Source: an uncultured Candidatus Saccharibacteria bacterium
GTDB taxonomy: Bacteria > Patescibacteriota > Minisyncoccia > Phycocordibacterales > UBA918
Length of the DNA stretch: 64,000 nt
Assembly: GCA_964502345.1 (NCBI GenBank)
Contig: CAZCWH010000001.1
Location: 167-64,166 of the forward strand
Reading direction: 5' to 3'
Of the stretch, positions 9,397 through 60,840 are shown in pieces. The notes beneath the pieces are model-generated. The model worked only from the letters and a program-made list of their open reading frames with translations, made no database searches and was not told where the DNA came from. A program made the position numbers and the translations under genes. Position 1 is the first letter of the stretch; each line of letters starts with the position of its first letter.

Positions 9397-9954
9397 CTAT
9401 TCTTGTGGCACTATTCCACTCACATAGTCTTTGAGTTCTTCGCTCGTGAGTGAGCCTCTTTTATGAAATACGAGATTCCCAATTTCATCATAGAAAAGCG
9501 TCTCTGGCATAGCATACCCTTCAATGGTACTAAAAAGGTGATCGTCTTGATCAATGAGGTACTCAATACCCTCTTCTCTACCAATCGTGTTTAGATATGC
9601 AAGCGCAGTTTCCTTGGTCTCCATTCGATTCATTGCGACAACCGAAATCTTATCGCCATATTCTTTTTTAATTTCACCGAGCGCTTTTAGATCACCCTGA
9701 GAAAAAGGACTCCACGAAGCCCACATGTTGATGATAAGTGGCTTACCTTGGAAGTCAGCAATATTGACCGCATTTCCGCTTAAATTAGTGTATGGCAGTG
9801 TTTCATCATGAACAATACTCACAATGTCAGCATTCCTTTTGGCAAAATATCCATTTGGTGACTTAAGCTCATAGATAACAAAGATACCAATGAGTACGAT
9901 AACACCAAGAATCGTGAGTGTTATTAAGGTTGCTTTCGCCGGATGCTTCATCAC
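9397..9954 (-). CDS. TlpA/ResA-like thioredoxin-fold protein, membrane-anchored, with CXXC replaced by SPFS (probably redox-inactive)
   Basis: N-terminal TM. The redoxin motif context INMWASW-SPFS-QGDLKALGEI occupies the place of the canonical WASWCxPC. Confidence 0.7.
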   Translation of the reverse strand: MMKHPAKATLITLTILGVIVLIGIFVIYELKSPNGYFAKRNADIVSIVHDETLPYTNLSGNAVNIADFQGKPLIINMWASWSPFSQGDLKALGEIKKEYGDKISVVAMNRMETKETALAYLNTIGREEGIEYLIDQDDHLFSTIEGYAMPETLFYDEIGNLVFHKRGSLTSEELKDYVSGIVPQE

Positions 9955-10009: not shown

Positions 10010-10489
10010 TTACCCTTTAATAAACAACTCAAAATCATCTGGAGTCTCATCACTACCTGCTGGAATTAAATTAAGCTCAACAGGTCTTCCTTCAAAGGTT
10101 GCTCGCATACTCGCGCCCTGACTTGCTTGAAATTCTACTTTGAATCGTTGATTCGTCACTACTTGGGCACAGGAATCAGATGTATTAATTACATCAAAGT
10201 TAATAGCAACTTGTTCGGGCATAGACTCAGCTACCACACTGTCCCAATTGAGCAAATCACACGCAGTTGGCATAGCAACTTCTCCAACAAGTGTATGTGT
10301 ACCATCTATAAAGAAGTGTTTTGCATCAATTCTCGTAATAGAGTCATATGGACCTGCTACGGGTTCCTCGACAACTGGAGTCACCCCAGTATTCTCAATC
10401 TCAGACTTCTTCAGGTACGCAAACACAAACATACCAATAATAATGAGTATAAAGAGTACAATGGCAACTATAATTCCATTATTTTTCAT
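10010..10489 (-). CDS. hypothetical N-terminally anchored extracytoplasmic protein
   Basis: 159 aa with a TM at residues ~5-25 and two Cys. Confidence 0.45.
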   Translation of the reverse strand: MKNNGIIVAIVLFILIIIGMFVFAYLKKSEIENTGVTPVVEEPVAGPYDSITRIDAKHFFIDGTHTLVGEVAMPTACDLLNWDSVVAESMPEQVAINFDVINTSDSCAQVVTNQRFKVEFQASQGASMRATFEGRPVELNLIPAGSDETPDDFELFIKG

Positions 10490-10551: not shown

Positions 10552-11904
10552 TTACTCTGACGTCGGTGATGGGATGACAGGCTGAGTCTCAAAGTTAGCT
10601 TTAACCTCATCATCAGAAAGTTTTCGTTCCCCATCACCTTCTTTGATCGTTATTTCATAATCTCGTTCTGGTTGAGACGCATCAGAAATATAGAGAACGG
10701 CCCCGACAAACCCGACAATAAGGAGTGCAACTGAAATGAAAAACATTTTATAGTGCACAATGAATGTCCAAATTGTACTGAGCACATCAAGAAATTCAGT
10801 TACTCTACTCAAGCGTCCCCGAAGATCCGCAGCACCACTACGGATCGGGGCTGATACTGCTCGATATGATACAAGCCGGGCAGGCTGCTTTTTAATTTCA
10901 AGTGTTTCCTCTCTCTCATTATTTGATTCTTCTGGGTGTACACCTGCAAGAGCAAGCATTCTGCGAATATACAATTTGATCATCCATGTCACCAATAAGA
11001 TAAATGCAATTACAATTGAAAGGGTTATGAGCGTTGCTTTTACAGGAATAACCCAGAAATACGTAACCGCATCAGTACTTTTAACCCCGTTTTCTCCATA
11101 CGCAAGTGTTACTATCGCCTTGTACCGCCCAATTTCAGTAACTGAGCCCTCTCCCTTCCAGGTAAACCTGAAGTCTCTAATACTTTTTGGTAACACGTTA
11201 CCAAAATGCGATTGGTTATTAATTGGTATGAGGCCTCGCTCAGTTCCCCACATATTGGTGATTACAATATGACCACGTGGCTGTAAATGCACATTGCCCT
11301 TATTTTCAAATCTAAGTGAGAACTCTGCTTCAGGTGTATCTACAATACTGTCGAGCACTCTAAACTCTCGAACTGAACCTAGCTCAGTAACATCTCCTTC
11401 AATACGTACAAAGAAGAGCGAAGTTATAGTTTGTGATGTGAGTAATTGAAGTTTTGCCTCAGAGTTTTTTGGTGGCTGTGTACCAACGAGTATTGCTGCG
11501 AAATGCCCACCAGGGGGTGCATCTTTTGGAATTTCGACAAAAAATGAAAGTTCTCTGCTTTGCTCGGGTGGTATGACATACGGCCCATTTGCAATCTCTA
11601 TCCACTCTGCAAGTGTGTTTCTACTTTCATCCTCGTCTTCTAGAACTGGAATAAATTTTCCTTGTCCCGATTCCCCTGAAGCTGCAAAATTTACAACTTC
11701 TGCATAAACGGTAATTTCGTATGGATTTCCATTCACAACCTTAACTGAGCTTTGCCAGATATCACCTCTTTCAACTGATAGTTGAAAGAGTGGTGGTGTC
11801 ACCGTGAGCACCTGTGCGTTTGATTGAGCATGTACTGAAAATGGTAGTGCAAGAAAAATGCTAAAGATAAAAACTATACTGTTTGTTACAACTCTTTGAC
11901 TCAT
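10552..11904 (-). CDS. DUF916/CscA-like cell-surface protein (signal peptide, beta-rich ectodomain, C-terminal TM helices)
   Basis: signal peptide, then xTVTPPLFQLSV...VKVVNGNP, which resembles the DUF916 N-terminal motif. TM near residue 290 and a second TM near 385. It overlaps the next gene by 4 nt. Confidence 0.45.
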   Translation of the reverse strand: MSQRVVTNSIVFIFSIFLALPFSVHAQSNAQVLTVTPPLFQLSVERGDIWQSSVKVVNGNPYEITVYAEVVNFAASGESGQGKFIPVLEDEDESRNTLAEWIEIANGPYVIPPEQSRELSFFVEIPKDAPPGGHFAAILVGTQPPKNSEAKLQLLTSQTITSLFFVRIEGDVTELGSVREFRVLDSIVDTPEAEFSLRFENKGNVHLQPRGHIVITNMWGTERGLIPINNQSHFGNVLPKSIRDFRFTWKGEGSVTEIGRYKAIVTLAYGENGVKSTDAVTYFWVIPVKATLITLSIVIAFILLVTWMIKLYIRRMLALAGVHPEESNNEREETLEIKKQPARLVSYRAVSAPIRSGAADLRGRLSRVTEFLDVLSTIWTFIVHYKMFFISVALLIVGFVGAVLYISDASQPERDYEITIKEGDGERKLSDDEVKANFETQPVIPSPTSE

Positions 11905-12935
11905 TGTTTTGTAAGATCTATGTCGTGATGGCGGGGGTCTGAACGAGATTCACGTATGCGAAGTGGAATCGGATCAGAATCATCCTGTATATCGTCGTCA
12001 AGATATTTTTTATGCACAAAGAAAGCAAGTACGACTACAAGAAGTGCAAGCGCTGCAAAAATACTCAGAAGCATTTTGAGCGGTATCACATAAAAAAATG
12101 AAGTGTCCTGGACAGAAGCTCGCTCAGTATTTCCATATTCAATATTGAGAAATGCTTTATATTTGCCAAAAAGTCCATCGACAGGTACCTCTACCGCAAA
12201 CTCCTTCTCCTCGCCTGCATTGATTGTCTGATTATCAGTGTTTACTGGAAGTGAAGCAACTTCAACCCCTTTGCTGTCATAGAAGATGATTTCGCCTTTG
12301 GGTGTAAGTGATTCATCTCCTGGATTTTTGATTGTGTACACTGCTGCCTGATTGCCCGCTCCCGTAATAAATCTATCAATTATAAACTTGCCTAGTTTTA
12401 GAAATTCAACCTTATTGTCTGCTATTGTTGCATTAATAATACTTCCAGGAGCATCACCACGCTTTACCTGCTCTGCTGCTTCATCTCTGTTTCTTCCATA
12501 CCCAAATCCTAAAAACGCATGGTATTCGCCAGGGACTGGACTCGGATGAACTCTGAATGTGACTTCTAAGGTTTTTGTCGCACCAATCATAAGATTAATC
12601 CCTTGCCTGCTGAACTCCATCCAGGAAGAGAGGGACGCGGAACGATCACTCTCAATTGGAGAATGATACTCTTCAATCATTCCCCCTTCATTGACAGAGA
12701 TGTTATTGATGCTCGGGTAGATGGTGACCGGAGAATCACCCGTGTTTGTAATGGTTATGATCTTAGTTACAATGTCGCGTGCTTCTAGATCTAAATCAAT
12801 GACTAGTGGAGAAACAAGGTAAGACGGAGCCGCGAAGCTGACCAAAGGAAATAGCAGTGAAAGACAAAAAAGTGTTATCGGAATCCTTGTTACCATACGC
12901 ACAGATAGTATCATACTAAAAAATTGGTACCGCAA
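11901..12935 (-). CDS. DUF916/CscA-like cell-surface protein with C-terminal TM and an acidic/basic tail
   Basis: signal peptide, beta-rich ectodomain, then TM (LLSIFAALALLVVVLAFFV) plus a charged tail. It lies immediately downstream of the 2471-aa giant gene with a 20-nt overlap. Confidence 0.45.
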   Translation of the reverse strand: MRYQFFSMILSVRMVTRIPITLFCLSLLFPLVSFAAPSYLVSPLVIDLDLEARDIVTKIITITNTGDSPVTIYPSINNISVNEGGMIEEYHSPIESDRSASLSSWMEFSRQGINLMIGATKTLEVTFRVHPSPVPGEYHAFLGFGYGRNRDEAAEQVKRGDAPGSIINATIADNKVEFLKLGKFIIDRFITGAGNQAAVYTIKNPGDESLTPKGEIIFYDSKGVEVASLPVNTDNQTINAGEEKEFAVEVPVDGLFGKYKAFLNIEYGNTERASVQDTSFFYVIPLKMLLSIFAALALLVVVLAFFVHKKYLDDDIQDDSDPIPLRIRESRSDPRHHDIDLTKQ

Positions 12936-15900
12936 TATACCTTATACTTGTGCCATATACACCAGCTGGCTGGGACTGACGGACCTTGAGTTTAAAGACG
13001 ATATCGGTTATTTCATTTGTCACGGGGACTGAACTATATGCCACCTCATCGAGAGTTGTGGTACTCATACGAGCGTACGTATCAATGGCAGAAAATCGTG
13101 CATTGCTGTTATATAGTGTGTCATCACCCGAATGGTAACCAGCACAACCAGTAGCCTCAGTGGAGCAACCTGTACTCCAATCTATTGGACTTGCATTTGT
13201 TCCTGTAATAGGTGGAATAATTGCTTCACTTCCACTCATGAAGTCATCTGTTGCTATCATAAAAATTCGATATCCTTCGGTAGCATTTGTAGTAACTCGC
13301 AACCGTTGAACTGCCTCTACATCTGAACCAATCGGAAGTATGCCAAATGGGATTGTTGTTGTACCAGAAGCAACGTCTGTCGTAATACCCTCAGTCGCAG
13401 TCGACGACGCAACGCCACCAACTGAAAATACGAGTGATGCTCCTTCAGTTACAAGTGACGGATACTGTTCACTATTGTTAGTAGACACGGGGACTCCCTG
13501 CACTACATCGTAAAGTCTAAAGTAGTACACAAGGTTTACGCGAGGACCTGCAGATTGAATGGTAAATTCGTATTCTGTAGCATCACCACCTTCATGCCGA
13601 AAACCACTCAACGCTTGAGGGGATTCATTATGCGTTCCACAACCGTTCCCAACACCCGCGACGCAACTGTCTGCATCAGAAAGTGTTCCGGTCGTTATTT
13701 CACTGTTATCGGTACCACCTCCATCTGCATAGCACCAGGTTGAAGTTGCTGTACACGTACTTGTTGCGACCACATCTGCAACAGTTTCGAAATTTGCATA
13801 CTCTGAGTACTGCAGTTTAAAACGCACATCATCACGTGATATATTTTTTACCTCTTTCACTACAACTCGGAGCTTGACCGCTTGACCATTTGCAATATCT
13901 ATTGGTGCAACATTTTCTATTGCAAGTGGTGTAACGGGTGTTTCATTATTTTCATCGTCGTACCAGCGCCAATTTTGCGTTTTGGGAGTAAAACTTGCAG
14001 TTCTAATTTTTGGATGTTGGTAATAATTTCCTAATAGTTCCCCATTTGTTTCAACCATTCGGAAACAGTAGTATGTTTCTGCATTTGCACCATTTTGTTC
14101 AACAATCCAATCATACTCAATGGTCTCATTCACCTGCACTGCATGCGCATTAGCATCAGTATCATTTTCTTCCTCAAGCGTACCAGCTACATCCGAAATG
14201 GAAGGAAGTACGAGATCGCCGAGCGTAGGAGGGTCTCCGGAAAGAAGCGTACCATCAGTTGTTCCTGTGGCATTAAAACCCCTCCAGATTGTACTTGAAG
14301 CAGCGTTCCCAAGTGTGTTCCAGTTTGCTTCACTAATTGCACTACATGTTGAGACCATTGGAGCATACTGGAGCTTAAATGCCTTAGTGCCAGCTGGCCA
14401 TGTGGCATTGAGTGCCTGAAGAGACATGCGAATACGAATCCGTTCTCCTTCACCTAGTGGTTCATCAGTAGCAGTTAAGGTTGTGTCTTCACCAAGATCT
14501 TGACCCCCGACAGGCCACGGGTCTGTTGGCTTGAGTGCATTGTTATCAACAAACAATTGATAATGGAGTTGCTCGAGTGCAAGCCCTGCAGTTGGCCATT
14601 CAACAATCTCCGCACGATACGTAAGCACTGAACCAGTATTACTGCGCCAGATTTCAAATGCAGTAGATGAAGCAATTGTTATACCTGCTATCGCTCGCGG
14701 GAAAATCGTAGTAGTGAGTGACGAACGAGCATTTGCAAATATTGATGCGTTTGTAAGGTCAGTCAGAACCTTTCCATTCGGAAGCGTGACGCTTACCGTA
14801 AGCGGAGCTGTGCCACCGGTCGTAAAACCATTTGACTGAGTGACTTCCATAGCTCCAGCTGCAGTTTGTGTATTTTCAATGATCCATGCGACTGAAGTCT
14901 GTCCAGACGGGGTTGTCGCACCAGCTTGAAGAAAGTACGACACAGAGCCAACACTAGAAAGCCACACCTCAGCACCAAATTCATCTGTTCCATTGAGTAG
15001 TCGATTATTTCTTTTCTGTGTATGTATAAACGTACGAGTTAGATTACCGAGGGCTGTAATTGCCTCAGTTTCAGTAACACCAGCTGCACTGTAGGTGTGT
15101 TCACTTCGTTGAACAACCCAATTCGGACCTTTAAATTCAACTACGGCATAACTTACCCGTACTGCATCCGTGCCGGTTGCTCCTCGCCAGAAATATGGTG
15201 TATCGTTATTTGCATCCCATGCTGAAGTACTCGGTAATGCATCATAGTTTGCCGAACCAGTATCAGGGCTTTGTTGCCCCGTAATAAATACAACTACATC
15301 ATCATCGTTTGTGATACCAGAAACTATACTGCCCGTAGCACTCGTAGAAGCTACTCCATACGCAATAAATGTTTGATCATGCACTATCATTTCATTATCG
15401 GAACCAGGCTCTCCAATAAATTCAATAATTTCCCAATCAACTCGTGTCGATGTTGCGACTCCTGTTCGTGCAATGGTCACTGAAGTCATGATATTTGAAG
15501 GGTTGAGTATATACGCTGTTGTGTTTGTTGCGTTTTGGGCTGCGGTATTCCCCGAAGCGTGACCAGCACCAGTAATACCGATATTTGTGATACGAATAAA
15601 TGCACTCGTTGAAGCGTTTGGTGTTATGTAGTGCACTCCAGCGACAAGTGTTGTTGAGGTAGCTCCCATGAGTATGGTTGCAGAGTTACGCTGGATTTCA
15701 AAATCTCGCTCAGGAGATGTGGTGAGCTCTGCATATTTTGAATACGCGTTAAGCTCAACACTCGAAGCAGCAAGCCTAAAACAATAGGTTATATCATTAC
15801 CCGCATCGACTGTTTGCTCAATACTAAACTCTGCTTCGAGGTACTCCGAACTCGTAATTGATGTAGTTGCAATGATTGATGATGTGTCCTTTATTGCACT

Positions 15901-18900
15901 GTTTGGTGAGAGGAAACTAGAGTTTTCATTTGATACCCCGCCCCCCAGTATAGAAATGTCTGTACTGTCATCACCATCCGTTAAATTAATCGAATCGTAC
16001 ATCTCCCAGGCGCCGCCAGTCGCACCCACATCAGTCCATGATGTTACAGCGCTACAGGTTGTGATTTTTGCTCCATACTCTAATCGTAATGCTCTGGCTA
16101 ATGAAGTAACAGTACCTTCGTTTGAAACTTGTAACCTCAAACGTACGGGAGTTGTCTGTGCAACATTTGAAATTGCCGTATCTTCCGCGTCACCCGAGAG
16201 CGAAGTTGCTGTTGTCTCATCTCCATTATCACTTCTCCAGTGGTAGTGGGTCTGTGTAAGGACTGCTCCTAAAAGTGTCGTTGACCCATTCATATCACGA
16301 GTAATTGAAGGACTTACTGAGCCTCCTCCAGAGACAATTAAATTTGATGATGGGCTTTCCATGATGATATCGATAGTTTCATCATTTTGTGCAGTGTCAG
16401 TCGTATCAAGTACGGTGTACAAACACATGGTCGACGTCGTCGAAATCGAGACTGACCCTGTAAATGTTGAGGTCCCATTGGGTCCTGAAAATCCATCAGT
16501 ATCTGTTGAACCAAACTGGGCTTCCCCTCCCGTATAACTATCACTTGCACAATCATAGGGAGCAGTGGTATCCAAATCATAATGAAGTTCTATATTGTCT
16601 AGATCGGTTTGTGCATCAACAGTCCCATTTTCTGAAATAGTAATGCTGGTAACATTGCGAGTGCTGACATTCTCAGTAATGACAAAAGCGCTCCCCACAT
16701 AGAAATCTGTTGCTGGTATTGTTGTCGTTGCTGTCTGACTTGTGGTTGCAATGGTCACGAGGACATCTGAAGAAATATTTGCACGCGGTATAACTGAATA
16801 CGCTGAGAGCGCTTGTCCTTGATTGGTAACTCTAAAACAGTATGTATTCCCTTCTACCGCGGTTGTTGAAGCTACTATTGAATACTCTAATTCAACAAAC
16901 TCTGATGATGACAGAGTAATTTGGCCGGTTTGAGATACAGTATCTTTTACACCACCATTTGGAGTAAGGAAGGTAGCATTTTCATCTGTCACAGCACCAT
17001 TGATTCCTGATGCTATATTTGTAGTATCTGCACCATCAGTTAAATTTAGTGTGTCGACCATATCAAAATCACCTCCTGCTGAACCAATGTCAGTCCATCC
17101 TGTTGCTGCTTCGCACGTGCTTGGATTTGGCGCATACTCCAAACGATACTGCATTGCTGGAGTTGAACTACTGCCCTCATTTGATACCTCTACACGGAGA
17201 CGTGTGGTTGATCCTTGTCGCATCGCAGTCAGTGAGGTGTCCTCAACTCCGCTCGTCTTTGAAGTGGCAGTCGTTTCATTTCCATCATCATTGCGCCAAT
17301 GATAGTGAACGAGAGTAGGAGTATCGTTATACACCAATGTTGTTCCAGAAAGATCTTGTGAAGCACTTGGCCCGGCACTACTACTCGTAACGGTCACATC
17401 GCTCGCTGGATTTGCAATAGAAATTTCAATTGTTGAACTACTGTCCGCTGAATCAAGCACGTCCATGACGGGATATACACAAAGTGCTTCAGTCGCATCT
17501 ACATTAACAGTCGAACCAGTAAACCCTGATGTACCATCTGCGCCAGAAAAACCATTACCATCCGTTGAACCAAACTGACTTTCACTTCCTCCATACGTGA
17601 CACTTGCACAATCGTATGGCGACACTGTATCGAGCTCATAAAACAACTTTACGTTAGCAATATCTGCCGAACCATCGATTGTTCCAGATTCAGTAATGGT
17701 AATTCCAGTAATATCATATGCTTGCGTTTCATCAGTATTGTAAAGACTAAACACACTACCGACATAGACATTACTCGTGCTTGCGTAGAGTGACGCAATT
17801 TGAGACCCAGTAGTTGCAATTGCAGTGCTTGGTAAATTTGCGAGTGTAGCACCATAGATATCATCGTCTGTATTATCAAACCATGTAACATACAAACGTT
17901 CACTATTGACGAATCCTACATCAACTCCATAGATATCATCTGGACTAGTATTTACTGGACCTTGTTCATATTCCCATGTAGTCATCCCATCAGTTGATCG
18001 TTTCCATAGTACATTCGCTGTGTTGGCTGTGTTTGCTGTGGCCTGTGCGCTATACGCTACATAGACGTCGTCATTGCTTGTATCCAGTGCAATGGCAACA
18101 TTTGTAAGACCAAGTACGACAGATGCACTCACATTAGTTTTTGGAGTCCACGTACCCGCGGAATAGACTGCTGTACGTAGCACGTCGTTCCCTGGTGTAG
18201 CATTATCTGCAATGTACGCGAGATATACATCTCCAGTCGTTGGACTCACAGTAACAGCCATACCTACGTCATATGTCGCATTATCGATTGCGTTTGAATC
18301 AATAGTCGTAGACGCCGCATCCCACGAGCCAGCTCCATTATTCCAAACTTTACTTTCAATATTTTCTGCAGCGGCGCCGACATCGCGATGAATTGCAATA
18401 ATGTTGCCCCCTGGAAGTGGGGCGAGTATTGCATAGTTGTTAGTGAGCCCAAAGGGGTTAGTTCCTGTTTCTGACCAACTTCCCGCAAGATTACAACTCG
18501 CAGAACATTCAACTACAAATGAATCAGATGCATCAATACTGCTTGCATAGATCGTCCCATCAGTTCCCTTCGTTATTGAAATCTGGTTGGTACCTACAGT
18601 AATCGTGCCTCCTTGAGCGTTTGTCGTACTTACCGGTGCACTACCCATAAGCAGTGTGTCGCTCGTCGTATCAAGCCGGTTGTACCAAACATCATCAGGG
18701 TTAGTATCGAGTGTCGCTATATGAATGTAATCTCCTGTATCTCCGGGCGTCCACTGGTCATACCATACTTGAATAGAGATACAGTCGACCTGAGCATCAA
18801 CCGTTGTGGTACCACTCCATGTCTGACCTCCATCAGTTGTTTTGCGGTACACACAGTATCCGGGTGCGTCAACAAAAAATTTGTACCCTGTCTGATCATC

Positions 18901-20331
18901 GGTAAAGACGGTTTGGGAGCCGGCTAACACATGTGATGTACCTGCGGTACTCACATTGCTATCTATTGTGTACTGGGTGTAGGAGTCATTACTATTGATT
19001 TCGTCAAAGGCAGTTGTGCGTACATGGATCCCTGGAAAAATATCAGCGAGAGTTTCTCCAAAAATATCATTATCTGTGTCATCAAACCACGTTGCATAAA
19101 TCCGTTCATCACTGACCAGATTTAAATTGATGCCGTACATATCATCAGCGCTCGTATTGAGTGGCCCCTGCTCATATCCCCAACTTGCCATGTCATCAGT
19201 CGACTTGCGCCAGTAAATATTTCCAGTCGCTAGTGTGAGAGGTGTTGTACGAGCACTATATGCTACGTACACATCGTCATTAGAGGCATCAAGTGCGATA
19301 GCAACATTCGTGATTCCTTTCTCACTATACCTCACAACCTCTTTTGTCGAGGTCCACGTACCACTCGAGTATCGTGCAGTGCGAATCTGATCGTCAGCTC
19401 CAAGGGTCGTATTACGTGCGATATATGCCAAATACACATCTCCTGTCGTCGGACTCACCGTAACAGCCATTCCAACATCATACGTAGTGTTATCTGTTGC
19501 ATTTGCATCTATGGTCGTCGATGCAGCGTCCCATGAGCCTGTGCCATTGTTCCAAACCTTACTCTCAATATTCTCTGCAACCGCAGCAACGTCACGATGA
19601 ATTGCTATGATGTCGCCACCTGGGAGAGGAGCGAGTATTGCATAGTTATTGGTAAGCCCAAATGGATTTGTACCGGTCTCAGACCAACTTCCTGCGACAT
19701 TACAACTTGAAGAACATTCAACAACAAATGAATCGGAGGCATCTATACTGCTTGCATAGATTGTTCCATCTGTTCCCTTCGTAATAGAAATTTGGTTTGC
19801 ACCTGCCGTAATGGTTCCACCCTGCCCCGTAGTCATACTAACTGGTGAGCTCCCCAAGAGGAGTGTATCCCCATTGGTATCAAGACGGTTATACCAAACA
19901 TCATCTGGGTTAGTATCGAGTGTAGCTATATGGATGTAAGTTCCAGTATCCCCTGGTGTCCACTGGTCGTACCAGACTTGCACTGAGATACAGTCAACCT
20001 GTGCATCGACTGTTGTTGTAGCGCTCCAGGTCTGCCCTCCATCCGTTGTTTTACGGTACACACAGTATCCTGGAGCATCAACAAAGAATTTGTATCCTGT
20101 TTGATCATCAATAAATACCGTTTGCGAACCCGACAGTATGTGCGACGTACCAACGGTACTTGCATCAGAATCAATAGTTGCCTGTGCAGCTTCAGCAGTA
20201 GGTACTATCCTCGTTAATAGTGCATCACCAAAACTGCTAAGCAAAAAAACGAGTATAAGAATAGACGCAACAGTCTTCTTCACTCGCAAGAGTTTTTTAA
20301 ATACAATACCTCCCATTGTCACCATTATCAC
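12916..20331 (-). CDS. giant secreted surface protein (2471 aa). It has two tandem BNR/Asp-box sialidase-like beta-propellers, repeated ~190-aa HYHWRxDDG...YCFR modules, and a conserved C-terminal module.
   Basis: signal peptide. Asp-box motifs TTDGGQTW and STDGMTTW occur in two ~390-aa units that are ~85% identical at the DNA level (about 17780-18980 and 19010-20180). The C-terminus ...GTSIRYIAVPIF is shared with the 378-aa protein. Confidence 0.85.
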   Translation of the reverse strand: MIMVTMGGIVFKKLLRVKKTVASILILVFLLSSFGDALLTRIVPTAEAAQATIDSDASTVGTSHILSGSQTVFIDDQTGYKFFVDAPGYCVYRKTTDGGQTWSATTTVDAQVDCISVQVWYDQWTPGDTGTYIHIATLDTNPDDVWYNRLDTNGDTLLLGSSPVSMTTGQGGTITAGANQISITKGTDGTIYASSIDASDSFVVECSSSCNVAGSWSETGTNPFGLTNNYAILAPLPGGDIIAIHRDVAAVAENIESKVWNNGTGSWDAASTTIDANATDNTTYDVGMAVTVSPTTGDVYLAYIARNTTLGADDQIRTARYSSGTWTSTKEVVRYSEKGITNVAIALDASNDDVYVAYSARTTPLTLATGNIYWRKSTDDMASWGYEQGPLNTSADDMYGINLNLVSDERIYATWFDDTDNDIFGETLADIFPGIHVRTTAFDEINSNDSYTQYTIDSNVSTAGTSHVLAGSQTVFTDDQTGYKFFVDAPGYCVYRKTTDGGQTWSGTTTVDAQVDCISIQVWYDQWTPGDTGDYIHIATLDTNPDDVWYNRLDTTSDTLLMGSAPVSTTNAQGGTITVGTNQISITKGTDGTIYASSIDASDSFVVECSASCNLAGSWSETGTNPFGLTNNYAILAPLPGGNIIAIHRDVGAAAENIESKVWNNGAGSWDAASTTIDSNAIDNATYDVGMAVTVSPTTGDVYLAYIADNATPGNDVLRTAVYSAGTWTPKTNVSASVVLGLTNVAIALDTSNDDVYVAYSAQATANTANTANVLWKRSTDGMTTWEYEQGPVNTSPDDIYGVDVGFVNSERLYVTWFDNTDDDIYGATLANLPSTAIATTGSQIASLYASTSNVYVGSVFSLYNTDETQAYDITGITITESGTIDGSADIANVKLFYELDTVSPYDCASVTYGGSESQFGSTDGNGFSGADGTSGFTGSTVNVDATEALCVYPVMDVLDSADSSSTIEISIANPASDVTVTSSSAGPSASQDLSGTTLVYNDTPTLVHYHWRNDDGNETTATSKTSGVEDTSLTAMRQGSTTRLRVEVSNEGSSSTPAMQYRLEYAPNPSTCEAATGWTDIGSAGGDFDMVDTLNLTDGADTTNIASGINGAVTDENATFLTPNGGVKDTVSQTGQITLSSSEFVELEYSIVASTTAVEGNTYCFRVTNQGQALSAYSVIPRANISSDVLVTIATTSQTATTTIPATDFYVGSAFVITENVSTRNVTSITISENGTVDAQTDLDNIELHYDLDTTAPYDCASDSYTGGEAQFGSTDTDGFSGPNGTSTFTGSVSISTTSTMCLYTVLDTTDTAQNDETIDIIMESPSSNLIVSGGGSVSPSITRDMNGSTTLLGAVLTQTHYHWRSDNGDETTATSLSGDAEDTAISNVAQTTPVRLRLQVSNEGTVTSLARALRLEYGAKITTCSAVTSWTDVGATGGAWEMYDSINLTDGDDSTDISILGGGVSNENSSFLSPNSAIKDTSSIIATTSITSSEYLEAEFSIEQTVDAGNDITYCFRLAASSVELNAYSKYAELTTSPERDFEIQRNSATILMGATSTTLVAGVHYITPNASTSAFIRITNIGITGAGHASGNTAAQNATNTTAYILNPSNIMTSVTIARTGVATSTRVDWEIIEFIGEPGSDNEMIVHDQTFIAYGVASTSATGSIVSGITNDDDVVVFITGQQSPDTGSANYDALPSTSAWDANNDTPYFWRGATGTDAVRVSYAVVEFKGPNWVVQRSEHTYSAAGVTETEAITALGNLTRTFIHTQKRNNRLLNGTDEFGAEVWLSSVGSVSYFLQAGATTPSGQTSVAWIIENTQTAAGAMEVTQSNGFTTGGTAPLTVSVTLPNGKVLTDLTNASIFANARSSLTTTIFPRAIAGITIASSTAFEIWRSNTGSVLTYRAEIVEWPTAGLALEQLHYQLFVDNNALKPTDPWPVGGQDLGEDTTLTATDEPLGEGERIRIRMSLQALNATWPAGTKAFKLQYAPMVSTCSAISEANWNTLGNAASSTIWRGFNATGTTDGTLLSGDPPTLGDLVLPSISDVAGTLEEENDTDANAHAVQVNETIEYDWIVEQNGANAETYYCFRMVETNGELLGNYYQHPKIRTASFTPKTQNWRWYDDENNETPVTPLAIENVAPIDIANGQAVKLRVVVKEVKNISRDDVRFKLQYSEYANFETVADVVATSTCTATSTWCYADGGGTDNSEITTGTLSDADSCVAGVGNGCGTHNESPQALSGFRHEGGDATEYEFTIQSAGPRVNLVYYFRLYDVVQGVPVSTNNSEQYPSLVTEGASLVFSVGGVASSTATEGITTDVASGTTTIPFGILPIGSDVEAVQRLRVTTNATEGYRIFMIATDDFMSGSEAIIPPITGTNASPIDWSTGCSTEATGCAGYHSGDDTLYNSNARFSAIDTYARMSTTTLDEVAYSSVPVTNEITDIVFKLKVRQSQPAGVYGTSIRYIAVPIF

Positions 20332-22255: not shown

Positions 22256-22993
22256 TTACTTAATAAATGAGTCAGCTAGAAGTATTGAAAAATCCTTAAG
22301 CGTCATGCGCCCGTCTCCATTAAAATCAAAAATCTTACCTTTTGTGAACCATGCTGCCATAAAGGCAGAGATGTCTTTAAGGTCCACTTCCCCATTACCG
22401 TCGAGATCAGTCACGAAGGCAACCTCAGCAGTTCCAATAAGCTCACCATCTACACCCGTTATGTAGATTCTTGTCTCGTCGTCCTCAACGTCCGCGACAT
22501 CAACAAGTGTTCCTAATCCATCTCCCGCAACAAATGTAGCGTTATCGGTGGTCACCTTAGCAATACCTGATTCGAGTGCTTTTGCATTGATTCGAGCAAT
22601 CGTATGCTCTCCAATAAAACCCTTTCTAAATGTTCCTCCCCGCATATATATGCGCCCATCCTTTGCATAGGGTTTCTCTGTCCACAGTGTAATGACTGAG
22701 GTCCCCGTATCAACACTTTCGATGCTCATCTGTGATTCTGGATACTTTATGGTTATATCAACAGCATTTACCGGTGTATGTGCTGTTGCGCGTACTTCTA
22801 TGTAAAAATTCTCACCTTCGAGTACTGAAGACGGACTTGTGTGAATTGAAATATATGAAGTATTTTCTGTGATTACAGAAGCAAGGCTTGCAAAGAGTGC
22901 CGTGAGTACAACCAGTGGAAATGCATATCGAACAGTCTTACCAGTTGTAAGCGTATATGATGGAAACATCATTTTCCAAATCTTTTCAAACAT
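22256..22993 (-). CDS. small secreted protein with an N-terminal cohesin-like domain and a C-terminal dockerin-like module
   Basis: cohesin-like segment VLEGENFYIEVRATAHTPVNAVDITIKYPESQMSIESVDTGTSVITLW. The C-terminus DLDGNGEVDLKDISAFMAAW...DFNGDGRMTLKDFSILLADSF is two Ca-binding dockerin-like repeats. Confidence 0.6.
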   Translation of the reverse strand: MFEKIWKMMFPSYTLTTGKTVRYAFPLVVLTALFASLASVITENTSYISIHTSPSSVLEGENFYIEVRATAHTPVNAVDITIKYPESQMSIESVDTGTSVITLWTEKPYAKDGRIYMRGGTFRKGFIGEHTIARINAKALESGIAKVTTDNATFVAGDGLGTLVDVADVEDDETRIYITGVDGELIGTAEVAFVTDLDGNGEVDLKDISAFMAAWFTKGKIFDFNGDGRMTLKDFSILLADSFIK

Positions 22994-22995
22994 AG

Positions 22996-23655
22996 TTACG
23001 TGCCAAGTTCAGCTCGTAAGTTATCAATCTGCTTATCAATAACGTTCAGTGTTTCTGATATGTTTTGTGCAGTACTTGCAAGCCCTTGCACGTTTTTACT
23101 TGATGTTTGCTCACCTTTTATAAGTGCGGTGATAATATCACCTTGTATAGTGGTAAGTTCTGTAAGATATGCACTTCGGTCTTTCTCAAGATCGATAATC
23201 TTCCCCCAGGTATCGAGATTATTGAACGAAACAGTTTTTGGGCTAATAACTTTAAGTAACGCAATACTTTCCTCTAATGATGCATACTCACGTTCGAGAC
23301 GCGACACCATGAGTGCCTTTCTTTCTGCATAGAAACTCCCGCAGCTTTCAAATAATTGTTGAACGATTATGAGATCCTTGTTTGTAAGTGACTCTAGGCG
23401 ACCCAAAAGGAGGTCAAATTCATTTCGTCTTGGACAGTCTTGAATAATTGCCCCAACGACACCATCTGCGCCATTCCAGTCTGTTGTATCAGCAAGTCCA
23501 ACCATGAGCTCGACTTGTGCATCAATGTTTTCTTGAATTTTTTGCACCACTTCTTCTTTTTGGTAATGTGCGACCCACGCACCGGCAGTAATTGCTCCTG
23601 CAATGATACAGAGGTGGATACTTATGAGTAAGTGCGAATTCAGAAAGGATTTCAT
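22996..23655 (-). CDS. hypothetical membrane-anchored coiled-coil protein
   Basis: 219 aa with an N-terminal TM. The remainder is predicted helical/coiled. Confidence 0.5.
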   Translation of the reverse strand: MKSFLNSHLLISIHLCIIAGAITAGAWVAHYQKEEVVQKIQENIDAQVELMVGLADTTDWNGADGVVGAIIQDCPRRNEFDLLLGRLESLTNKDLIIVQQLFESCGSFYAERKALMVSRLEREYASLEESIALLKVISPKTVSFNNLDTWGKIIDLEKDRSAYLTELTTIQGDIITALIKGEQTSSKNVQGLASTAQNISETLNVIDKQIDNLRAELGT

Positions 23656-23659
23656 GCTT

Positions 23660-25405
23660 CTATTGTACTATATGTTCGATATCTGATATTTCCTTTCGTA
23701 TCTTTGACCGTGCGTCAGCGAGATCTGTTTCAATTTGATCTATAAGAGTATTTTCTGCCTGTGTGAGCTTGCCTTTTCGTGACTCTTTCAGCTTTTCAAC
23801 ATTTTTGTGCATGTTGGTCATTACTTCGTCGAGCTCTATCTTCATTATACTCTCTACCTCAAGGGTTTCTTTCTCAACTTTTCGACGCCACACCGCAAGC
23901 CTGTGCCAGAGATACCAGCAACCAAAAATCAGTACAATAGAGAGTGAGATAAGCGGAACAAGTACAGAAAGCACCGTCACAACAAACGAACCAATTCGTA
24001 CGAATCCTGGTTCCTCAACTATAATTCTAATCGGATCTGAGACATCACTTGTTGCGCCGTGCATGTCTGTTGCAATTGCCGTTATGTCATACACACCAAT
24101 TTCAAATGGTGCGTCAGGGATGAATATGAATGCACCTCCCCCGTCGGATTTAAGTGTGTACGTTTTTGTAGCACCATCTGTTGGTGTCACTGACACCTCT
24201 ACCTGTGCGTCAGGACGTGTAGTACCCCTCAGTGCTGGGATTACTTCAGCGTTAATTCGTGATGGATACTCAGTAAAAAGTGGTTTCTCAAATGCTGTAA
24301 TATCAAATGAATATGTAGCAACTCGACTGTTACCTGCACCATCAAATGCTTCTACGATAAGTGTATGGTGTCCTGGCGCTATTGAAGGAAGCACGTACTT
24401 TCTCGTTTCTTCCTCATCTAGATATTCAAAAGGGTCAGTAGCATCAATCTGTATTTTGTATCGTGTTACAGGAGAAATATCTTCCACAGTAAACTGAAGT
24501 GTTCGCTTTGGATTTGATGGATCAAAATCAGTATCTTCTGAAACAGTAAATGCTGACGGCGCCTCACTATCTACCTGGATTTTAAAGTGGGTTACCCTAC
24601 CCCATCCCTCTGCATTTTTAAACTGAATATGGAAATACGATATGCCTTGTGGCAAATCCTCGAGTGTACGTGATCGAATGGGCTCGTCATATACGATGGT
24701 TGGTATTGTACTTGGAGCAGTGTCGAGTAATGTACGTACTGCAATAATTCCACTCGGTAGTTCCCAACTAAGCTCTGCAGCGTCATTCTTGTACCAGGTC
24801 TCCTGATTACCATGAGTCGTTGAAGTGACAACTGGAGCCTTTGGGGTATTGGCTGGTGCAATATACTCAGGCTCTGGATTACTCGTTACTGCAGAAATTG
24901 TATAGGAAGAACCAGTCATTGATGTCAGAACATTTGTTCCAAGTCCATCAGCTGCAAGCACTGAACCACTCTTAAAGGTGACTTTTGGATTACCTGCACC
25001 AAGAGGTCTAAACGTAATTGTTAAAATGTTCCCCGAGGCTCCGGTGTAACCCGTTGGTGATCCTCCTCCAAACGATATTGTGCCTAATGTATTTGAAAAA
25101 CTTGGCTCCTGTGTCCACAAATTAAAAATGGAACTCGCTCGAGAGACACTGACGACAGAAAGCTCCTTTGGGTTATAAGAAAGCTGACCATCTGCAGCAT
25201 TGACTGCTTTGTTTTGAGTATTAATGATCACATTTGCGGTAAATGTCCCTCCAACGGTATACACTCCCGTATCTGGACTCACACGAAGTGTTGCAGCATG
25301 TGCCGACTGTGTCATACAGATATACAACACACTCAAGAGACCAACGATGATGATCGTTCGTAAAAATACTATTCCTATACTATTCGATTTCAACATTGTC
25401 TTCAT
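23660..25405 (-). CDS. cohesin-domain bitopic membrane protein with a cytoplasmic coiled-coil tail
   Basis: signal peptide, then a cohesin-like domain (ATLRVSPDTGVYTVGGTFTANVIINTQNKAVNAADGQLSYNPKELSVVSVS...NLW). Ig-like domains follow, then a TM (IGSFVVTVLSVLVPLISLSIVLIFGCWYLW) and a ~90-aa charged helical tail. Confidence 0.7.
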   Translation of the reverse strand: MKTMLKSNSIGIVFLRTIIIVGLLSVLYICMTQSAHAATLRVSPDTGVYTVGGTFTANVIINTQNKAVNAADGQLSYNPKELSVVSVSRASSIFNLWTQEPSFSNTLGTISFGGGSPTGYTGASGNILTITFRPLGAGNPKVTFKSGSVLAADGLGTNVLTSMTGSSYTISAVTSNPEPEYIAPANTPKAPVVTSTTHGNQETWYKNDAAELSWELPSGIIAVRTLLDTAPSTIPTIVYDEPIRSRTLEDLPQGISYFHIQFKNAEGWGRVTHFKIQVDSEAPSAFTVSEDTDFDPSNPKRTLQFTVEDISPVTRYKIQIDATDPFEYLDEEETRKYVLPSIAPGHHTLIVEAFDGAGNSRVATYSFDITAFEKPLFTEYPSRINAEVIPALRGTTRPDAQVEVSVTPTDGATKTYTLKSDGGGAFIFIPDAPFEIGVYDITAIATDMHGATSDVSDPIRIIVEEPGFVRIGSFVVTVLSVLVPLISLSIVLIFGCWYLWHRLAVWRRKVEKETLEVESIMKIELDEVMTNMHKNVEKLKESRKGKLTQAENTLIDQIETDLADARSKIRKEISDIEHIVQ

Positions 25406-26471
25406 AGAGTGCTAACAGTTTTTGCTTGCGTCGCCAGAGCATGTATACAATAAGCCCACACACAACGATTACGAGCGTCCCCACAACAACCCACGTAATA
25501 ATTGTGCCCAAGGTTAATGTACGCATTGCCTCTGCAGGAACGAGGACCGCAACAGTTTCATTTCCTGCCTTATCAATTGCTTTGACACGTATTGTGCTAT
25601 TAAGTGTTTGATCAGTTAGGACATATGGGCTTTCAGTTGTCACCCATGGCGCATCAGCTCTCCCCCACCTAAATGCATAGAAATCTTCAAAGGGTTCTTC
25701 CATTACTTCATAGTGGTCGATTCCTGATTGTTTATCATGACTATTAAAGGATATGAAGTAGCGTCCACTAAACGCGAAATCATCTTTGAAAAGACTTATT
25801 AAAAAATCTGATGGCTTAGTGGTGTCCGTCTGGACACGATTTTTCCAGTCGTCTTCAGTTGTTTCACCTGCAGTGCCAAGTAGTGTGATTATGGCTCCCT
25901 GTGTACGTAGTGAAGCTGGAGTGCCGAAACCATCATGAATAAGCACTTGCGATGTCTCGTCAACCCAAATATTAGCTGTGGGTGCATCTCCAGCTCCGAT
26001 ACTAAAACCAGGTGACCGGAAGACAAGTTCTGCAATTATATTCGTGAGACTCGGATCACCAGCAATTCTTCCACAGTATCCACCAGGCAAGCCTCCTGCG
26101 AGTGTAATCGTGTGATTTTCTTCATCAATCTTAGGGTCCTCGAGCCAAATATTGAGAATTGAATCACCGCGCGATACATCAACGGCTCTGATGGCTGAAT
26201 CATACTTAATTACAGCATCGACTGCATTGATACATTCCCCTTCATCTGTATCAATTCTTAAACCGACCGTCACAGTATCACCTCGATTTAAATTTATTTC
26301 TCCTGGATCAAAATATAGAAGTGCAGCTTGTGTATGCACACATAACACCAAAAACAGTAGTGAAGAAAATAAAAAATAGGCGAAACCTCGCACGACATGC
26401 TGAATGGCGCTGTGCATATGTACGTATAGTATAACAGTCACTATAGTCTGACATAGCCCCACTACCCACAT
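25380..26471 (-). CDS. cohesin-domain membrane protein (N-terminal signal/anchor, cohesin-like domain, C-terminal TM)
   Basis: LLYFDPGEINLNRGDTVTVGLRIDTDEGECINAVDAVIKYDSAIRAVDVSRGDSILNIW is cohesin-like. The C-terminal TM is TIITWVVVGTLVIVVCGLIVYMLW. Confidence 0.65.
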   Translation of the reverse strand: MWVVGLCQTIVTVILYVHMHSAIQHVVRGFAYFLFSSLLFLVLCVHTQAALLYFDPGEINLNRGDTVTVGLRIDTDEGECINAVDAVIKYDSAIRAVDVSRGDSILNIWLEDPKIDEENHTITLAGGLPGGYCGRIAGDPSLTNIIAELVFRSPGFSIGAGDAPTANIWVDETSQVLIHDGFGTPASLRTQGAIITLLGTAGETTEDDWKNRVQTDTTKPSDFLISLFKDDFAFSGRYFISFNSHDKQSGIDHYEVMEEPFEDFYAFRWGRADAPWVTTESPYVLTDQTLNSTIRVKAIDKAGNETVAVLVPAEAMRTLTLGTIITWVVVGTLVIVVCGLIVYMLWRRKQKLLALYEDNVEIE

Positions 26472-26826: not shown

Positions 26827-27963
26827 TTAGAACGTCGGTGTCGCAATGTAGCGAAGCTCCGTCGTATAGTCGTCGCCTGCTTCTTGGAGCGCCGAGATCT
26901 GAATCTGGTACCCGATGCGTGCGGCGCCTATTCCGGCAGTCACACCATCTGCTGGTCCCGTATGACCCATAACCACTATAGGTGTCGTGCTACCTGATAC
27001 CCATTCATCTGAACCAAACTCTTCTGGTGCAGAACGTGAAGTTGTAGCGTCAGTTGAGGTTAGACCCCAATGACCGTAGGTAGCGATGTCAGCAACAAGA
27101 GCACTTGGCCCTTGCCACGCAGTTGGTGTTTGCGTGTAGGCTCCATCGATGAATCCATCGATTATTCCGCCTGTTGTTGATTCGAGATCACCTGTTTGTT
27201 CTACTGTTACCGTGTAGCCGTGTAGGGCGTTTGTGGTAACAGAAAGATCTTGAGCAAGTGTTTTTGACGTATTGATTTCGAGTGTACCGAACGGTAGCGC
27301 TACATTAGTTGAAGTTGCTGCAGTCGTTGTTGGGCTCCCGTTCACGGTTGAGCTGGCTCCGACGCCAGTGACTGTGAATGTGAGCGAAGCATTGACGCTT
27401 GCAGATACCGTTACTTCATCAATGATAGCGACCCGAACTTGCCCTGAATCGGGCATGGTTCCACCGATTTCAATAAGATGCGATGTCGTTGTTGCAGTCG
27501 GGTTTGAGATCTGAGCATCCCCTCCTCCAAATAGACCAATCTCAATTACGAGTGGTGTACTTGATGCCTGCGGTACGTTACTCGGTGATGTGAGTGTTAG
27601 TACCTGAGCATTGAAGTAGGCTCCCCACACTCCACTTCCATTTACTGCCGCTACTGTTTGTGGAGTAGCTGATGCAGTGATGTCGATATCATCGAATGCC
27701 ATTGCTGGTATCGTGAAATCTACAGGAAATGTAATGGTGATCGTTGAACTTGCGAGCATACCAGTTGGCGTTGTAAACGCAATGGTGTGGTCGGAAGGCA
27801 ACCCTGGTGCAGAACTAGACAACGTATCACTTGCAAAAGTGATTGATGCAGCTTCCGCGGTGCGGAAGATGGTTGGAAGACCTGTACTCCAAAGGAATAC
27901 AGCGATACCAACAATCATTGCAACAGCCTGAAGAGTTCGCACGGTACTTGCCGTGTGAATCAT
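26827..27963 (-). CDS. secreted protein sharing the ~170-aa type-A C-terminal module with the 2471-aa giant protein
   Basis: 378 aa with a signal peptide. Its C-terminal half aligns by eye with the 2471-aa C-terminus (L.F.V.GV.ASST...PFG.L.I...VTTNA..GY... ...RYIA.P.F). Confidence 0.6.
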   Translation of the reverse strand: MIHTASTVRTLQAVAMIVGIAVFLWSTGLPTIFRTAEAASITFASDTLSSSAPGLPSDHTIAFTTPTGMLASSTITITFPVDFTIPAMAFDDIDITASATPQTVAAVNGSGVWGAYFNAQVLTLTSPSNVPQASSTPLVIEIGLFGGGDAQISNPTATTTSHLIEIGGTMPDSGQVRVAIIDEVTVSASVNASLTFTVTGVGASSTVNGSPTTTAATSTNVALPFGTLEINTSKTLAQDLSVTTNALHGYTVTVEQTGDLESTTGGIIDGFIDGAYTQTPTAWQGPSALVADIATYGHWGLTSTDATTSRSAPEEFGSDEWVSGSTTPIVVMGHTGPADGVTAGIGAARIGYQIQISALQEAGDDYTTELRYIATPTF

Positions 27964-33888: not shown

Positions 33889-33982
33889 ACTGTAGTGTAA
33901 TAGTAAACAAAAAACACCGAATACGAAACCTGGTTGCTCGCATAACTAGCACTCAAAGCTAAAAGCGCACTTTGAGCGTGCA

Positions 33983-60379: not shown

Positions 60380-60840
60380 CACTGCTCCTTTGTACGTGCT
60401 CGACTTATCTTTAAACGAACCTTCTCCTTTTCTTCAGGTCGCAGAAGAGGAAGGATAAGGACCAGTACTCCATTCTTAATCTTTGCCTCTGCACCCTCAA
60501 TATCAACACTTTCTGGTAAGATGATTCGTCTATAAAAATCGCCCCAGACGCATTCTTCAGTAAAGAAAGCACCTTCAGGCTTTTTCTTTGGGAATGCCAA
60601 ATGTTCTGGGCGCAACCGCTTACCCTCAATAAGCACAACATCGGCATCACCCTCAATAGACACATGAATATCGGTGAGCTCAGCCCCGGCAGCTTGTGCA
60701 TATACGGTAATAAGATCAGTCGTCTGAAATACATCGACATCGAGTTGCACAATCTTATCAAGTGCCGTTTCTTCTTCGCTCGATTGCAGACGTTGTTCAG
60801 TTCGAATACCTCTTCCCTTGAGTCTTTGCAAAAAGGACAT
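60379..60840 (-). CDS. Hsp20/alpha-crystallin family small heat-shock protein
   Basis: 153 aa with an alpha-crystallin domain (LDVDVFQTTDLITVYAQAAGAE...IEGKRL...GDFYRRIILPESVDIEGAEAKIKNGVLVLILP). Its stop TGA overlaps the ATG of the downstream cohesin gene as TGATG. Confidence 0.85.
   Translation of the reverse strand: MSFLQRLKGRGIRTEQRLQSSEEETALDKIVQLDVDVFQTTDLITVYAQAAGAELTDIHVSIEGDADVVLIEGKRLRPEHLAFPKKKPEGAFFTEECVWGDFYRRIILPESVDIEGAEAKIKNGVLVLILPLLRPEEKEKVRLKISRARTKEQ

Follow-up and report, generated by a model that had tools for sequence, protein, structure and literature searches.

To which kind of surface system do three membrane-anchored proteins belong when they are encoded downstream of large secreted proteins? 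The question is raised by a locus of an ultra-small bacterium of the candidate phyla radiation (CPR), located in 64,000 nt of contig CAZCWH010000001.1 of assembly GCA_964502345.1 (uncultured Candidatus Saccharibacteria bacterium; positions 167–64,166, forward strand), here called the window. The GTDB lineage of the source is Bacteria; Patescibacteriota; Minisyncoccia; Phycocordibacterales; UBA918, and it is referred to below as Paceibacteria. The three proteins, P1, P2 and P3, were initially annotated from the sequence as anchors of the CscA/DUF916 type in an arrangement like that of the WxL clusters of Firmicutes. The present analysis points, by analogy and with a probability of roughly 60%, to a Paceibacteria version of the Pam-type surface-fibre system of CPR bacteria, with a chaperone but no usher.

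Much of bacterial diversity belongs to the CPR, whose members live attached to other cells; the assembly of surface structures in most of them is, to our knowledge, not understood. The Pam pilus was described in 2026, mainly for Saccharimonadia, and the filaments of PamA and PamB were solved from Ca. Mycosynbacter amalyticus (Troman et al., bioRxiv 10.64898/2026.03.03.709456). Each Pam pilin consists of an N-terminal domain (NTD), a linker strand and a truncated immunoglobulin (Ig) C-terminal domain (CTD) that accepts the linker of its neighbour. The operon also includes two PapD/FimC-like chaperones with a C-terminal transmembrane (TM) helix, PamC (WP_260763277.1) and PamD (WP_260763284.1), a tip pilin PamT with the CTD only, and an RbmA-like anchored terminator, PamR (WP_260763282.1), carrying an extra N-terminal donor strand; WxL, DUF916, Paceibacteria and giant proteins go unmentioned in that paper (bioRxiv 10.64898/2026.03.03.709456). 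In WxL clusters, the WxL-interacting protein (WxLIP, or CscA), formed by DUF916, DUF3324 and a TM helix, occurs with WxL-domain proteins (Hassan et al. 2023, PMC10599100; PDB 9i1y, 9i25). A cluster is defined by at least two WxL-domain proteins within a few genes, and WxLIP is predicted to complete the beta-sandwich of its partner with a hairpin strand (PMC10599100).

Type-A module and the Pam-pilin C-terminal domain

The two C-terminal modules that had been pointed out in the large secreted proteins were recovered by BLASTP. In the all-vs-all comparison of the window proteins, residues 2298–2471 of the 2471-aa giant protein matched residues 192–378 of the 378-aa protein (type A, E 3e-6), and residues 383–619 of the 627-aa protein matched residues 7047–7245 of the 7248-aa giant protein (type B, E 2e-15). 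Their presumed novelty held for type B, which had no family match, but not for type A. The NCBIfam model NF058581 (CPR_Pam_pilin_C) matched the tail of the 2471-aa giant (E 6.8e-10, 39 bits, positions 3–148 of the 148 of the profile), the 378-aa protein (E 8e-4) and all 26 orthologous type-A tails (best E 5.7e-11). Judged by this profile similarity, type A is a Pam-pilin CTD, an already known family, and scores under the 55-bit naming cut-off indicate a divergent branch of it. Since type A matches the Pam-pilin CTD, the closest known system is the CPR Pam pilus and not the Firmicute WxL cluster.

The 378-aa protein appears to have the layout of a Pam pilin, and its size is near that of PamB (38.7 kDa). 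In its AlphaFold2 model, a 13-residue strand (residues 187–199) lies between an NTD with a confidence score (pLDDT, predicted local distance difference test) of 82–96 and a CTD with a score of 31–54. The low confidence of the CTD beside the confident NTD would fit a fold that is not complete by itself. Foldseek searches with this model returned only generic Ig-like proteins, the CTD being too poorly predicted for a fold search. The linker strand, VSASVNASLTFTVTGV, is among the most conserved parts of the protein and aligns with PSLVTEGASLVFSVGGV, located directly before the CTD of the 2471-aa giant and showing the alternating hydrophobic pattern L-x-F-x-V-x-G-V. By analogy to PamA and PamB (bioRxiv 10.64898/2026.03.03.709456), we infer that these candidate linkers act as donor strands. 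Orthologs of the 378-aa protein are 63–77% identical, and the type-A giants of the relatives are 1700–2700 aa long. We read the 2471-aa protein as a giant subunit or adhesin.

Some additional features of the type-A proteins were observed. The signal-peptide region (residues 1–40) of the 378-aa protein is almost invariant across 30 orthologs, and the motif TAEAA is located at the probable cleavage site of this protein and of the 2471-aa giant; together, these features suggest dedicated processing or a functional N-terminal segment. Many orthologs of the 378-aa protein are located on several independent gene-sized contigs of ~1.3–1.4 kb (Logan, JGI and ENA assemblies); such contigs could reflect very high expression in transcriptome-derived assemblies.

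Architecture and relationship of P1, P2 and P3

Hydropathy, the structural model of P1 and the alignments all bore out the architecture initially proposed for the three proteins, i.e. a signal peptide, two beta-rich domains and a C-terminal TM helix. Each hydropathy profile has a signal segment at the N-terminus and a TM helix around residues 280–315; in P1 this helix (TM1, ~288–315) is followed by an extra one (TM2, ~378–411) and then ~40 residues. The AlphaFold2 model of P1, built with 28 orthologs as input (mean pLDDT 75), includes beta-sandwich domains at residues 33–170 and 176–285, the TM helix, a helical loop, the second TM helix and a small C-terminal hairpin.

P1 and P2 are 24% identical over 300 aa (BLASTP, E 1e-13), and hhalign aligned their families over both domains from the first strand (probability 99.9%, E 4e-32). 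The P3 family was matched to the P2 family with 97.3% (E 2.7e-11, both domains covered) and to the P1 family with 91.9%. According to these alignments P1 and P2 are paralogs, and P3 is a remote paralog of both. A domain-1 hairpin of ~20 residues, found in P1 and P2 (residues ~77–97) and also in WxLIP, is missing from P3. The P1 hairpin includes the positions G77-E78-x-G80-x-G82-x-F84, which are invariant among the orthologs but of low confidence in the model, and the family alignment places it at the hairpin region of domain 1 in WxLIP. The Pfam scan gave no match for P3, and none of the three proteins matched a PamC or PamD model of NCBIfam at E up to 1.

Conserved parts were found also outside the two domains. 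In the cytoplasmic loop region of P1 (~312–411, including TM2), Y312, R314, L317, L319, A320, G321, P353 and G357 are invariant, and the last 40 aa of P2 form a conserved acidic cytoplasmic tail with DHDIDL(K) at its end. Such conserved cytoplasmic parts are unexpected for a passive anchor or chaperone, and they hint at a cytoplasmic partner. A LytR_C domain has been added to the C-terminus in about a fifth of the P1 orthologs. Four relatives of 605–802 aa (P0361, P0362, P0370 and P0446) matched the ectodomain profile of P1 and P2 in two to three stretches and appear, from these matches, to be P2–P1 fusions. In P3, the motif AGFG is present directly after the signal peptide and again just ahead of the TM helix. 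The conservation of P3 (73–81% identity) is unusually high for a surface-exposed protein of CPR bacteria.

Relationship to DUF916 and the WxL-interacting proteins

The proposed likeness to DUF916 held for P1 and P2 as remote homology and was not detected for P3. The Pfam model of DUF916 (PF06030, WxLIP_PGBD) has a gathering cut-off of 27.3 bits, and it matched P1 (E 6e-5, 23.5 bits, positions 1–117 of the 121 of the profile) and P2 (E 0.003, 18.1 bits) under that cut-off and P3 not at all. Among the orthologs, matches were obtained in 14 of 28 for P1 and 8 of 27 for P2, and also in 33 of 64 wider relatives (best E 8.4e-9). As references, WxLIPs were taken from eight genuine WxL clusters on plasmids of Enterococcus, Melissococcus, Lactococcus, Bacillus, Lactiplantibacillus and Listeria, found via a mass-spectrometry peptide. 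In hhalign, these eight were matched by the P2 family with 95.2% (E 2.6e-8) and by the P1 family with 65.6% (E 5.8e-5), while the P3 family gave no significant match.

In the Foldseek search of the P1 model against PDB, the top matches were 9i25_C ('WxLIP ... bound to long WxL') and 9i1y, both domains being covered with E ~1e-10 and the top match being the WxLIP of E. faecium. These were followed by the chaperones CfaA, CsuC, Caf1M, DraB, SafB, FimC and CupB2 and by RbmA. Sequence searches of PDB with the P1 family, type-A and WxL profiles and with two WxL proteins retrieved nothing relevant, and 9i1y and 9i25 were found by the genuine WxLIP only. With a combined ectodomain profile of P1 and P2, HMMER detected 4,857 proteins at E ≤ 1e-3 among 1.84 billion representatives; the matches listed were all close relatives (E < 1e-54), and no bridge to Firmicute WxLIPs or to the PamC/PamD of Saccharimonadia was found among them. 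From the profile and fold matches we conclude that the DUF916/WxLIP lineage probably has a divergent branch in CPR bacteria, to which P1 and P2 belong.

The remaining parts of a WxL cluster were not recovered. DUF3324 (WxLIP_HBD, PF11797), also expected from the initial annotation, had no hidden Markov model (HMM) match in the window proteins or in any of the 119 family members scanned (28 + 27 + 64), the second domain of the family having only weak matches to fn3_5 or NEW3 in Pfam (fn3_5 in P2). The N-terminal WxLIP motif NQIDKxxxYFDLK is absent, the aligned positions being SVTPPLFQLS in P1, VSPLVIDLDLE in P2 and AGFGITPPYV in P3. Neither the scanned neighbouring proteins nor the 26 type-A tails were matched by Pfam models of WxL, with E values of up to 10 allowed. 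In hhalign with an alignment of 12 WxL sequences, the probabilities were 0.9% for the type-A tails and 0.4% for the type-B tails, so that neither module has significant profile similarity to WxL. Cross-scans of WxL proteins against NCBIfam and of type-A tails against Pfam revealed no link between WxL and Pam either. The missing DUF3324, NQIDK motif and WxL domain rule out the locus as a WxL cluster. The accompanying idea that the modules may be functional analogues of WxL, i.e. strand-accepting domains held by an anchored protein, is compatible with a Pam-like system.

Some motifs of type A and WxL nevertheless occur in the same order, without significant profile scores: FG-x-L ... TNATEGY-x-I of type A parallels FG ... 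D-x-RGT-x-x-GW-x-L of WxL, and the C-terminal Y-x-T-x-I-R-Y-I-A-x-P parallels Y-x-T-K-L-T-W-x-L-x-x-x-P. In two WxL proteins of Bacillus and Listeria the W is replaced by Y or V. The collinearity, including GY-x-I versus GW-x-L, is suggestive only. PapC_N matches in two of the 26 type-A tails (E 0.046) were dismissed as noise.

Type-B module

Besides the lack of NCBIfam matches for the module, the 627-aa protein had no match in Pfam. When aligned with the tails of orthologous giants, type B showed conserved cysteines, ADPTD, I-x-YG-x-LEPG ... GN-x-GLD and, at the C-terminal end, YWGI-x-VP ... G-x-NTFTA. The orthologs of the 7248-aa giant, 5573–5607 aa long, carry DUF2341, and the 2471-aa and 7248-aa giants have repeats in common (all-vs-all BLASTP of the window proteins). 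By analogy to P1 and P2, we read P3 as a putative chaperone or anchor for the type-B proteins.

Gene order and co-occurrence

All three anchored proteins were confirmed as open reading frames (ORFs) on the minus strand, and the initial observation that they follow large secreted proteins was correct: P2 and P1 are located downstream of the 2471-aa protein, and P3 downstream of the 627-aa protein. The likely start of P2 is the ATG at 12914, giving a protein of 337 aa. The stop TAG of the giant is separated from this ATG by a 1-nt gap, and the TGA of P2 and the ATG of P1 overlap as ATGA. Between the 627-aa gene and P3 the spacing is 113 nt.

The co-occurrence of the anchored proteins with the modules, which had been put forward as a check, proved near-universal in the relatives. 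The loci were sampled as 80 metagenome loci fetched with P1, 39 of which had more than 2.2 kb of upstream DNA and were usable for determining the order, and as 80 species-level genomes fetched with P3, including four loci with almost no upstream DNA. The order type-A tail, P2-like, P1-like was present in 39 of the 39 usable P1 loci. A type-B tail was present upstream of P3 in 76 of the 80 genomes, and in 75 of these 76 it ended within ~230 nt of the P3 match. Such regularity goes far beyond what chance would produce. The 378-aa protein was found in 53 of the 80 P3 loci.

Homologs of P1, P3 and the 378-aa protein were present in metagenome-assembled genomes of Paceibacteria, Minisyncoccia and Kaiserbacteria. 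P1 was conserved at 55–67% identity across more than 100 clusters and P3 at the identity given above across more than 120, a degree of conservation expected of machinery and not of variable adhesins. The synteny of the ~50-kb locus was kept in the relatives in the order giant, Fn3 protein, ABC pair, type-B protein, P3, dockerin protein, 378-aa protein, cohesin proteins, ~590-aa protein, giant type-A protein, P2, P1, 159-aa protein and redoxin.

Comparison with known systems and proposed mechanism

The likeness to the Pam operon includes the homologous pilin CTD (26 of 26 tails), the apparent layout of NTD, strand and CTD in the 378-aa protein, a pair of PapD-like proteins that are encoded in the operon and have two domains each and a TM helix at the C-terminus, the lack of an usher and a monoderm CPR host. 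Usher families were not present among the Pfam matches of the scanned neighbouring ORFs. Unlike in Pam, the host belongs to Paceibacteria, the HMM scores are under the naming cut-off, one of the CTDs is borne by a 2471-aa giant, an additional TM helix and a conserved loop in the cytoplasm are found in P1, with LytR_C on some orthologs, and the neighbourhood consists of cohesin/dockerin genes and a MacB-type ABC transporter instead of ATP synthase genes.

With WxL clusters the locus shares the signal peptide, two Ig-like domains, TM helix and charged tail of the anchored proteins, their location beside large secreted proteins, a domain 1 that is remotely homologous (95% in hhalign with the P2 family) and WxLIP as the best structural match of P1. 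It differs from them in lacking a DUF3324 match, the NQIDKxxxYFDLK motif, a WxL domain and a small LPXTG protein, and further in the Pam-type CTD or type B of the partners, the extra TM helix and loop of P1 and the CPR taxon. In comparison to the chaperone-usher pili (PapD/FimC, Caf1M, CfaA, CsuC), the putative chaperone here is membrane-anchored and not soluble in the periplasm, there is no outer membrane or usher, the pilins are two-domain or giant, and sequence similarity is not detectable.

The analysis established the homology, the fold, the anchoring in the membrane, the coupling of the genes and their near-universal co-occurrence. In the Pam-type reading, every binding and assembly step of which we infer, the CTDs of the 378-aa and 2471-aa proteins would be incomplete Ig-like folds, as in Pam pilins, needing a beta-strand from another protein, and the strand before each type-A CTD could be donated to the next subunit. 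After export by Sec, the anchored P2 and P1 would insert a strand, for which the conserved domain-1 hairpin is a candidate source, into the open type-A CTD and thereby retain the subunit at the membrane. As the fibre grows, this cap would be displaced by the linker strand of the following subunit; alternatively, the complex of P1 or P2 with the subunit might persist, tethering the giant to the cell. P2 and P1 would thus be anchored chaperones or anchors for the 378-aa pilin and the 2471-aa giant subunit, and P3, which lacks the hairpin, may serve the 627-aa and 7248-aa proteins in a corresponding way through their type-B tails, which are unrelated to type A.

Several observations weigh against this reading. 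The NF058581 scores reach only 39–41 bits, below the NCBI naming cut-off of 55 bits, the model of the 378-aa CTD is too poor to reveal a groove, and Pam pilins have been reported mainly in Saccharimonadia and Microgenomatia (bioRxiv 10.64898/2026.03.03.709456). The likeness of P1 and P2 to PamC and PamD is one of fold, layout and description. Proteins like the tip PamT or the terminator PamR were not recognised, although no systematic search for them was made and RbmA is among the fold matches of P1. A simple chaperone role leaves TM2 of P1 and the conserved cytoplasmic motifs of P1 and P2 unexplained, and the LytR_C domain of some P1 orthologs does not fit such a role. The hairpin proposed as the donor is lacking from P3. 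Type B shows no similarity to the Pam CTD, WxL or type A detectable with hhalign (type A versus type B not significant) or NCBIfam, and with such a P3 and an unmatched type B, the extension to this pair rests only on the paralogy of P3 and on adjacency.

Alternative explanations

A static arrangement, in which P1, P2 and perhaps P3 permanently hold the large proteins via the C-terminal module with no exchange and no filament, corresponds to the role proposed for WxLIP and WxL in Firmicutes. It would agree with WxLIP, including the solved complex of WxLIP with a long WxL, as the best structural match of P1, with the DUF916 homology of P1 and P2, with the cell-envelope domain LytR_C on some P1 orthologs, and with a gene order in which a large surface protein is followed by an anchored two-domain protein as in WxL clusters. 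We nevertheless consider it unlikely: the partner module matches a pilin domain known to polymerise and not WxL, the conserved strand before the CTD in both type-A proteins has no role in pure anchoring, and DUF3324 is absent. Still more improbable is that P1, P2 and P3 are generic Ig-like envelope proteins (structural, cell-wall-associated or adhesins) that are co-transcribed with the large proteins and do not bind their C-terminal modules. The strict pairing of P1 and P2 with type A (39/39) and of P3 with type B (75/76) and the translational coupling of the genes argue against it, and so do the closest structural relatives, which bind strand-deficient partners.

The functions of P1 and P2 might also differ within a Pam-type system, one of them, most likely P1, having the role of PamR as a fibre terminator or membrane anchor and only P2 being a true chaperone. 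This division of labour draws on the two TM helices of P1 and on LytR_C in some orthologs. It seems somewhat doubtful, as P1 and P2 align from the first strand over both domains, so that P1 lacks the extra N-terminal donor strand described for PamR, and as the chaperone fold matches of P1 score as well as or better than RbmA. On a wider scale, we tentatively suggest, as a rather speculative possibility, that WxL/WxLIP clusters, Pam pili and the Paceibacteria locus are branches of one ancient monoderm system in which an anchored DUF916/PapD-like protein completes a strand-deficient CTD. In the Paceibacteria such a system would have been extended to tether or polymerise giants of 2,000–7,000 aa and by type B, an acceptor module not described before, with the hairpin-less and extremely conserved P3 as its own chaperone; this second branch may be coupled to the MacB-type ABC transporter.

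Should the Pam-type reading be correct, it suggests that Paceibacteria have strand exchange of the Pam-like kind as a conserved core feature, that such a system is used for giant proteins, and that the anchored chaperones of this system share their lineage with the WxL-interacting protein of Gram-positive bacteria. The chaperone-like family comprises ~4,900 representatives at 50% identity. The DUF916 kinship would link WxL clusters, Pam pili and chaperone-usher pili in evolution and mechanism. Type B and P3 are singled out as a second, uncharacterised pair of module and putative chaperone. Three elements exceed the known Pam system: giant proteins bearing the CTD in a Paceibacteria host, the relationship of the anchored chaperone-like proteins to DUF916/WxLIP, and the type-B/P3 pair.

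Features of the locus and neighbouring genes

The coordinates of the features are collected in Table 1.

Table 1. Features of the locus, with positions counted from the first nucleotide of the window.
Feature	Position	Strand	Description
P1	10552..11904	-	450 aa; signal peptide, two Ig-like domains, TM1, cytoplasmic loop, TM2, short extracellular tail
P2	11901..12935	-	344 aa by mechanical ORF; signal peptide, two Ig-like domains, one TM helix, acidic tail
P3	29666..30604	-	312 aa; signal peptide, two Ig-like domains, one TM helix, basic tail
2471-aa secreted giant protein	12916..20331	-	N-terminal BNR/sialidase-like repeats; C-terminal type-A module
Type-A module of the 2471-aa giant	12919..13362	-	last 148 aa; NF058581 match; end of sequence QPAGVYGTSIRYIAVPIF
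Candidate linker/donor strand of the 2471-aa giant	13399..13458	-	directly before the CTD; PSLVTEGASLVFSVGGV; based on alignment with the 378-aa protein
378-aa pilin-like protein	26827..27963	-	signal peptide, N-terminal beta-sandwich, linker strand, type-A CTD
627-aa protein	30718..32601	-	N-terminal TM helix or signal anchor; C-terminal ~240 aa form the type-B module
7248-aa giant protein	37020..58766	-	last ~200 aa form the type-B module
MacB-type ABC pair	32674..35305	-	permease 32674..33888; ATPase 33983..35305
159-aa TM protein	10010..10489	-	downstream of P1
Membrane-anchored thioredoxin-like Redoxin	9397..9954	-	downstream of P1

The MacB-type permease and the ABC ATPase, which has a C-terminal extension of ~200 aa, are encoded between the 7248-aa giant and the 627-aa type-B gene. 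The permease (MacB_PCD/FtsX) was kept in 71 and the ATPase (ABC_tran) in 66 of the 80 related loci. Downstream of P1, the 159-aa TM protein was present in 56 and the Redoxin in 60 of the 80 P1 loci. An invariant pair of cysteines is present in the type-A CTD, and since Pam pilins also have paired cysteines that could form disulfide bonds, a disulfide-handling role is possible by analogy.

Cohesin- and dockerin-domain proteins, several of them membrane-anchored, are encoded at 22256..26471, 28538..29662, 58850..60382 and 61171..63042. Their genes are interleaved with the pilin-like and giant genes and syntenic in the relatives, and judged by its domains the set resembles docking of the cellulosome type, here in a CPR bacterium. 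The 623-aa dockerin protein and the 378-aa pilin-like protein share an N-terminal domain (E 2e-4). A gene of the Hsp20/alpha-crystallin family (E 4e-10) is located at 60379..60840, between cohesin and dockerin genes and upstream of the 7248-aa giant.

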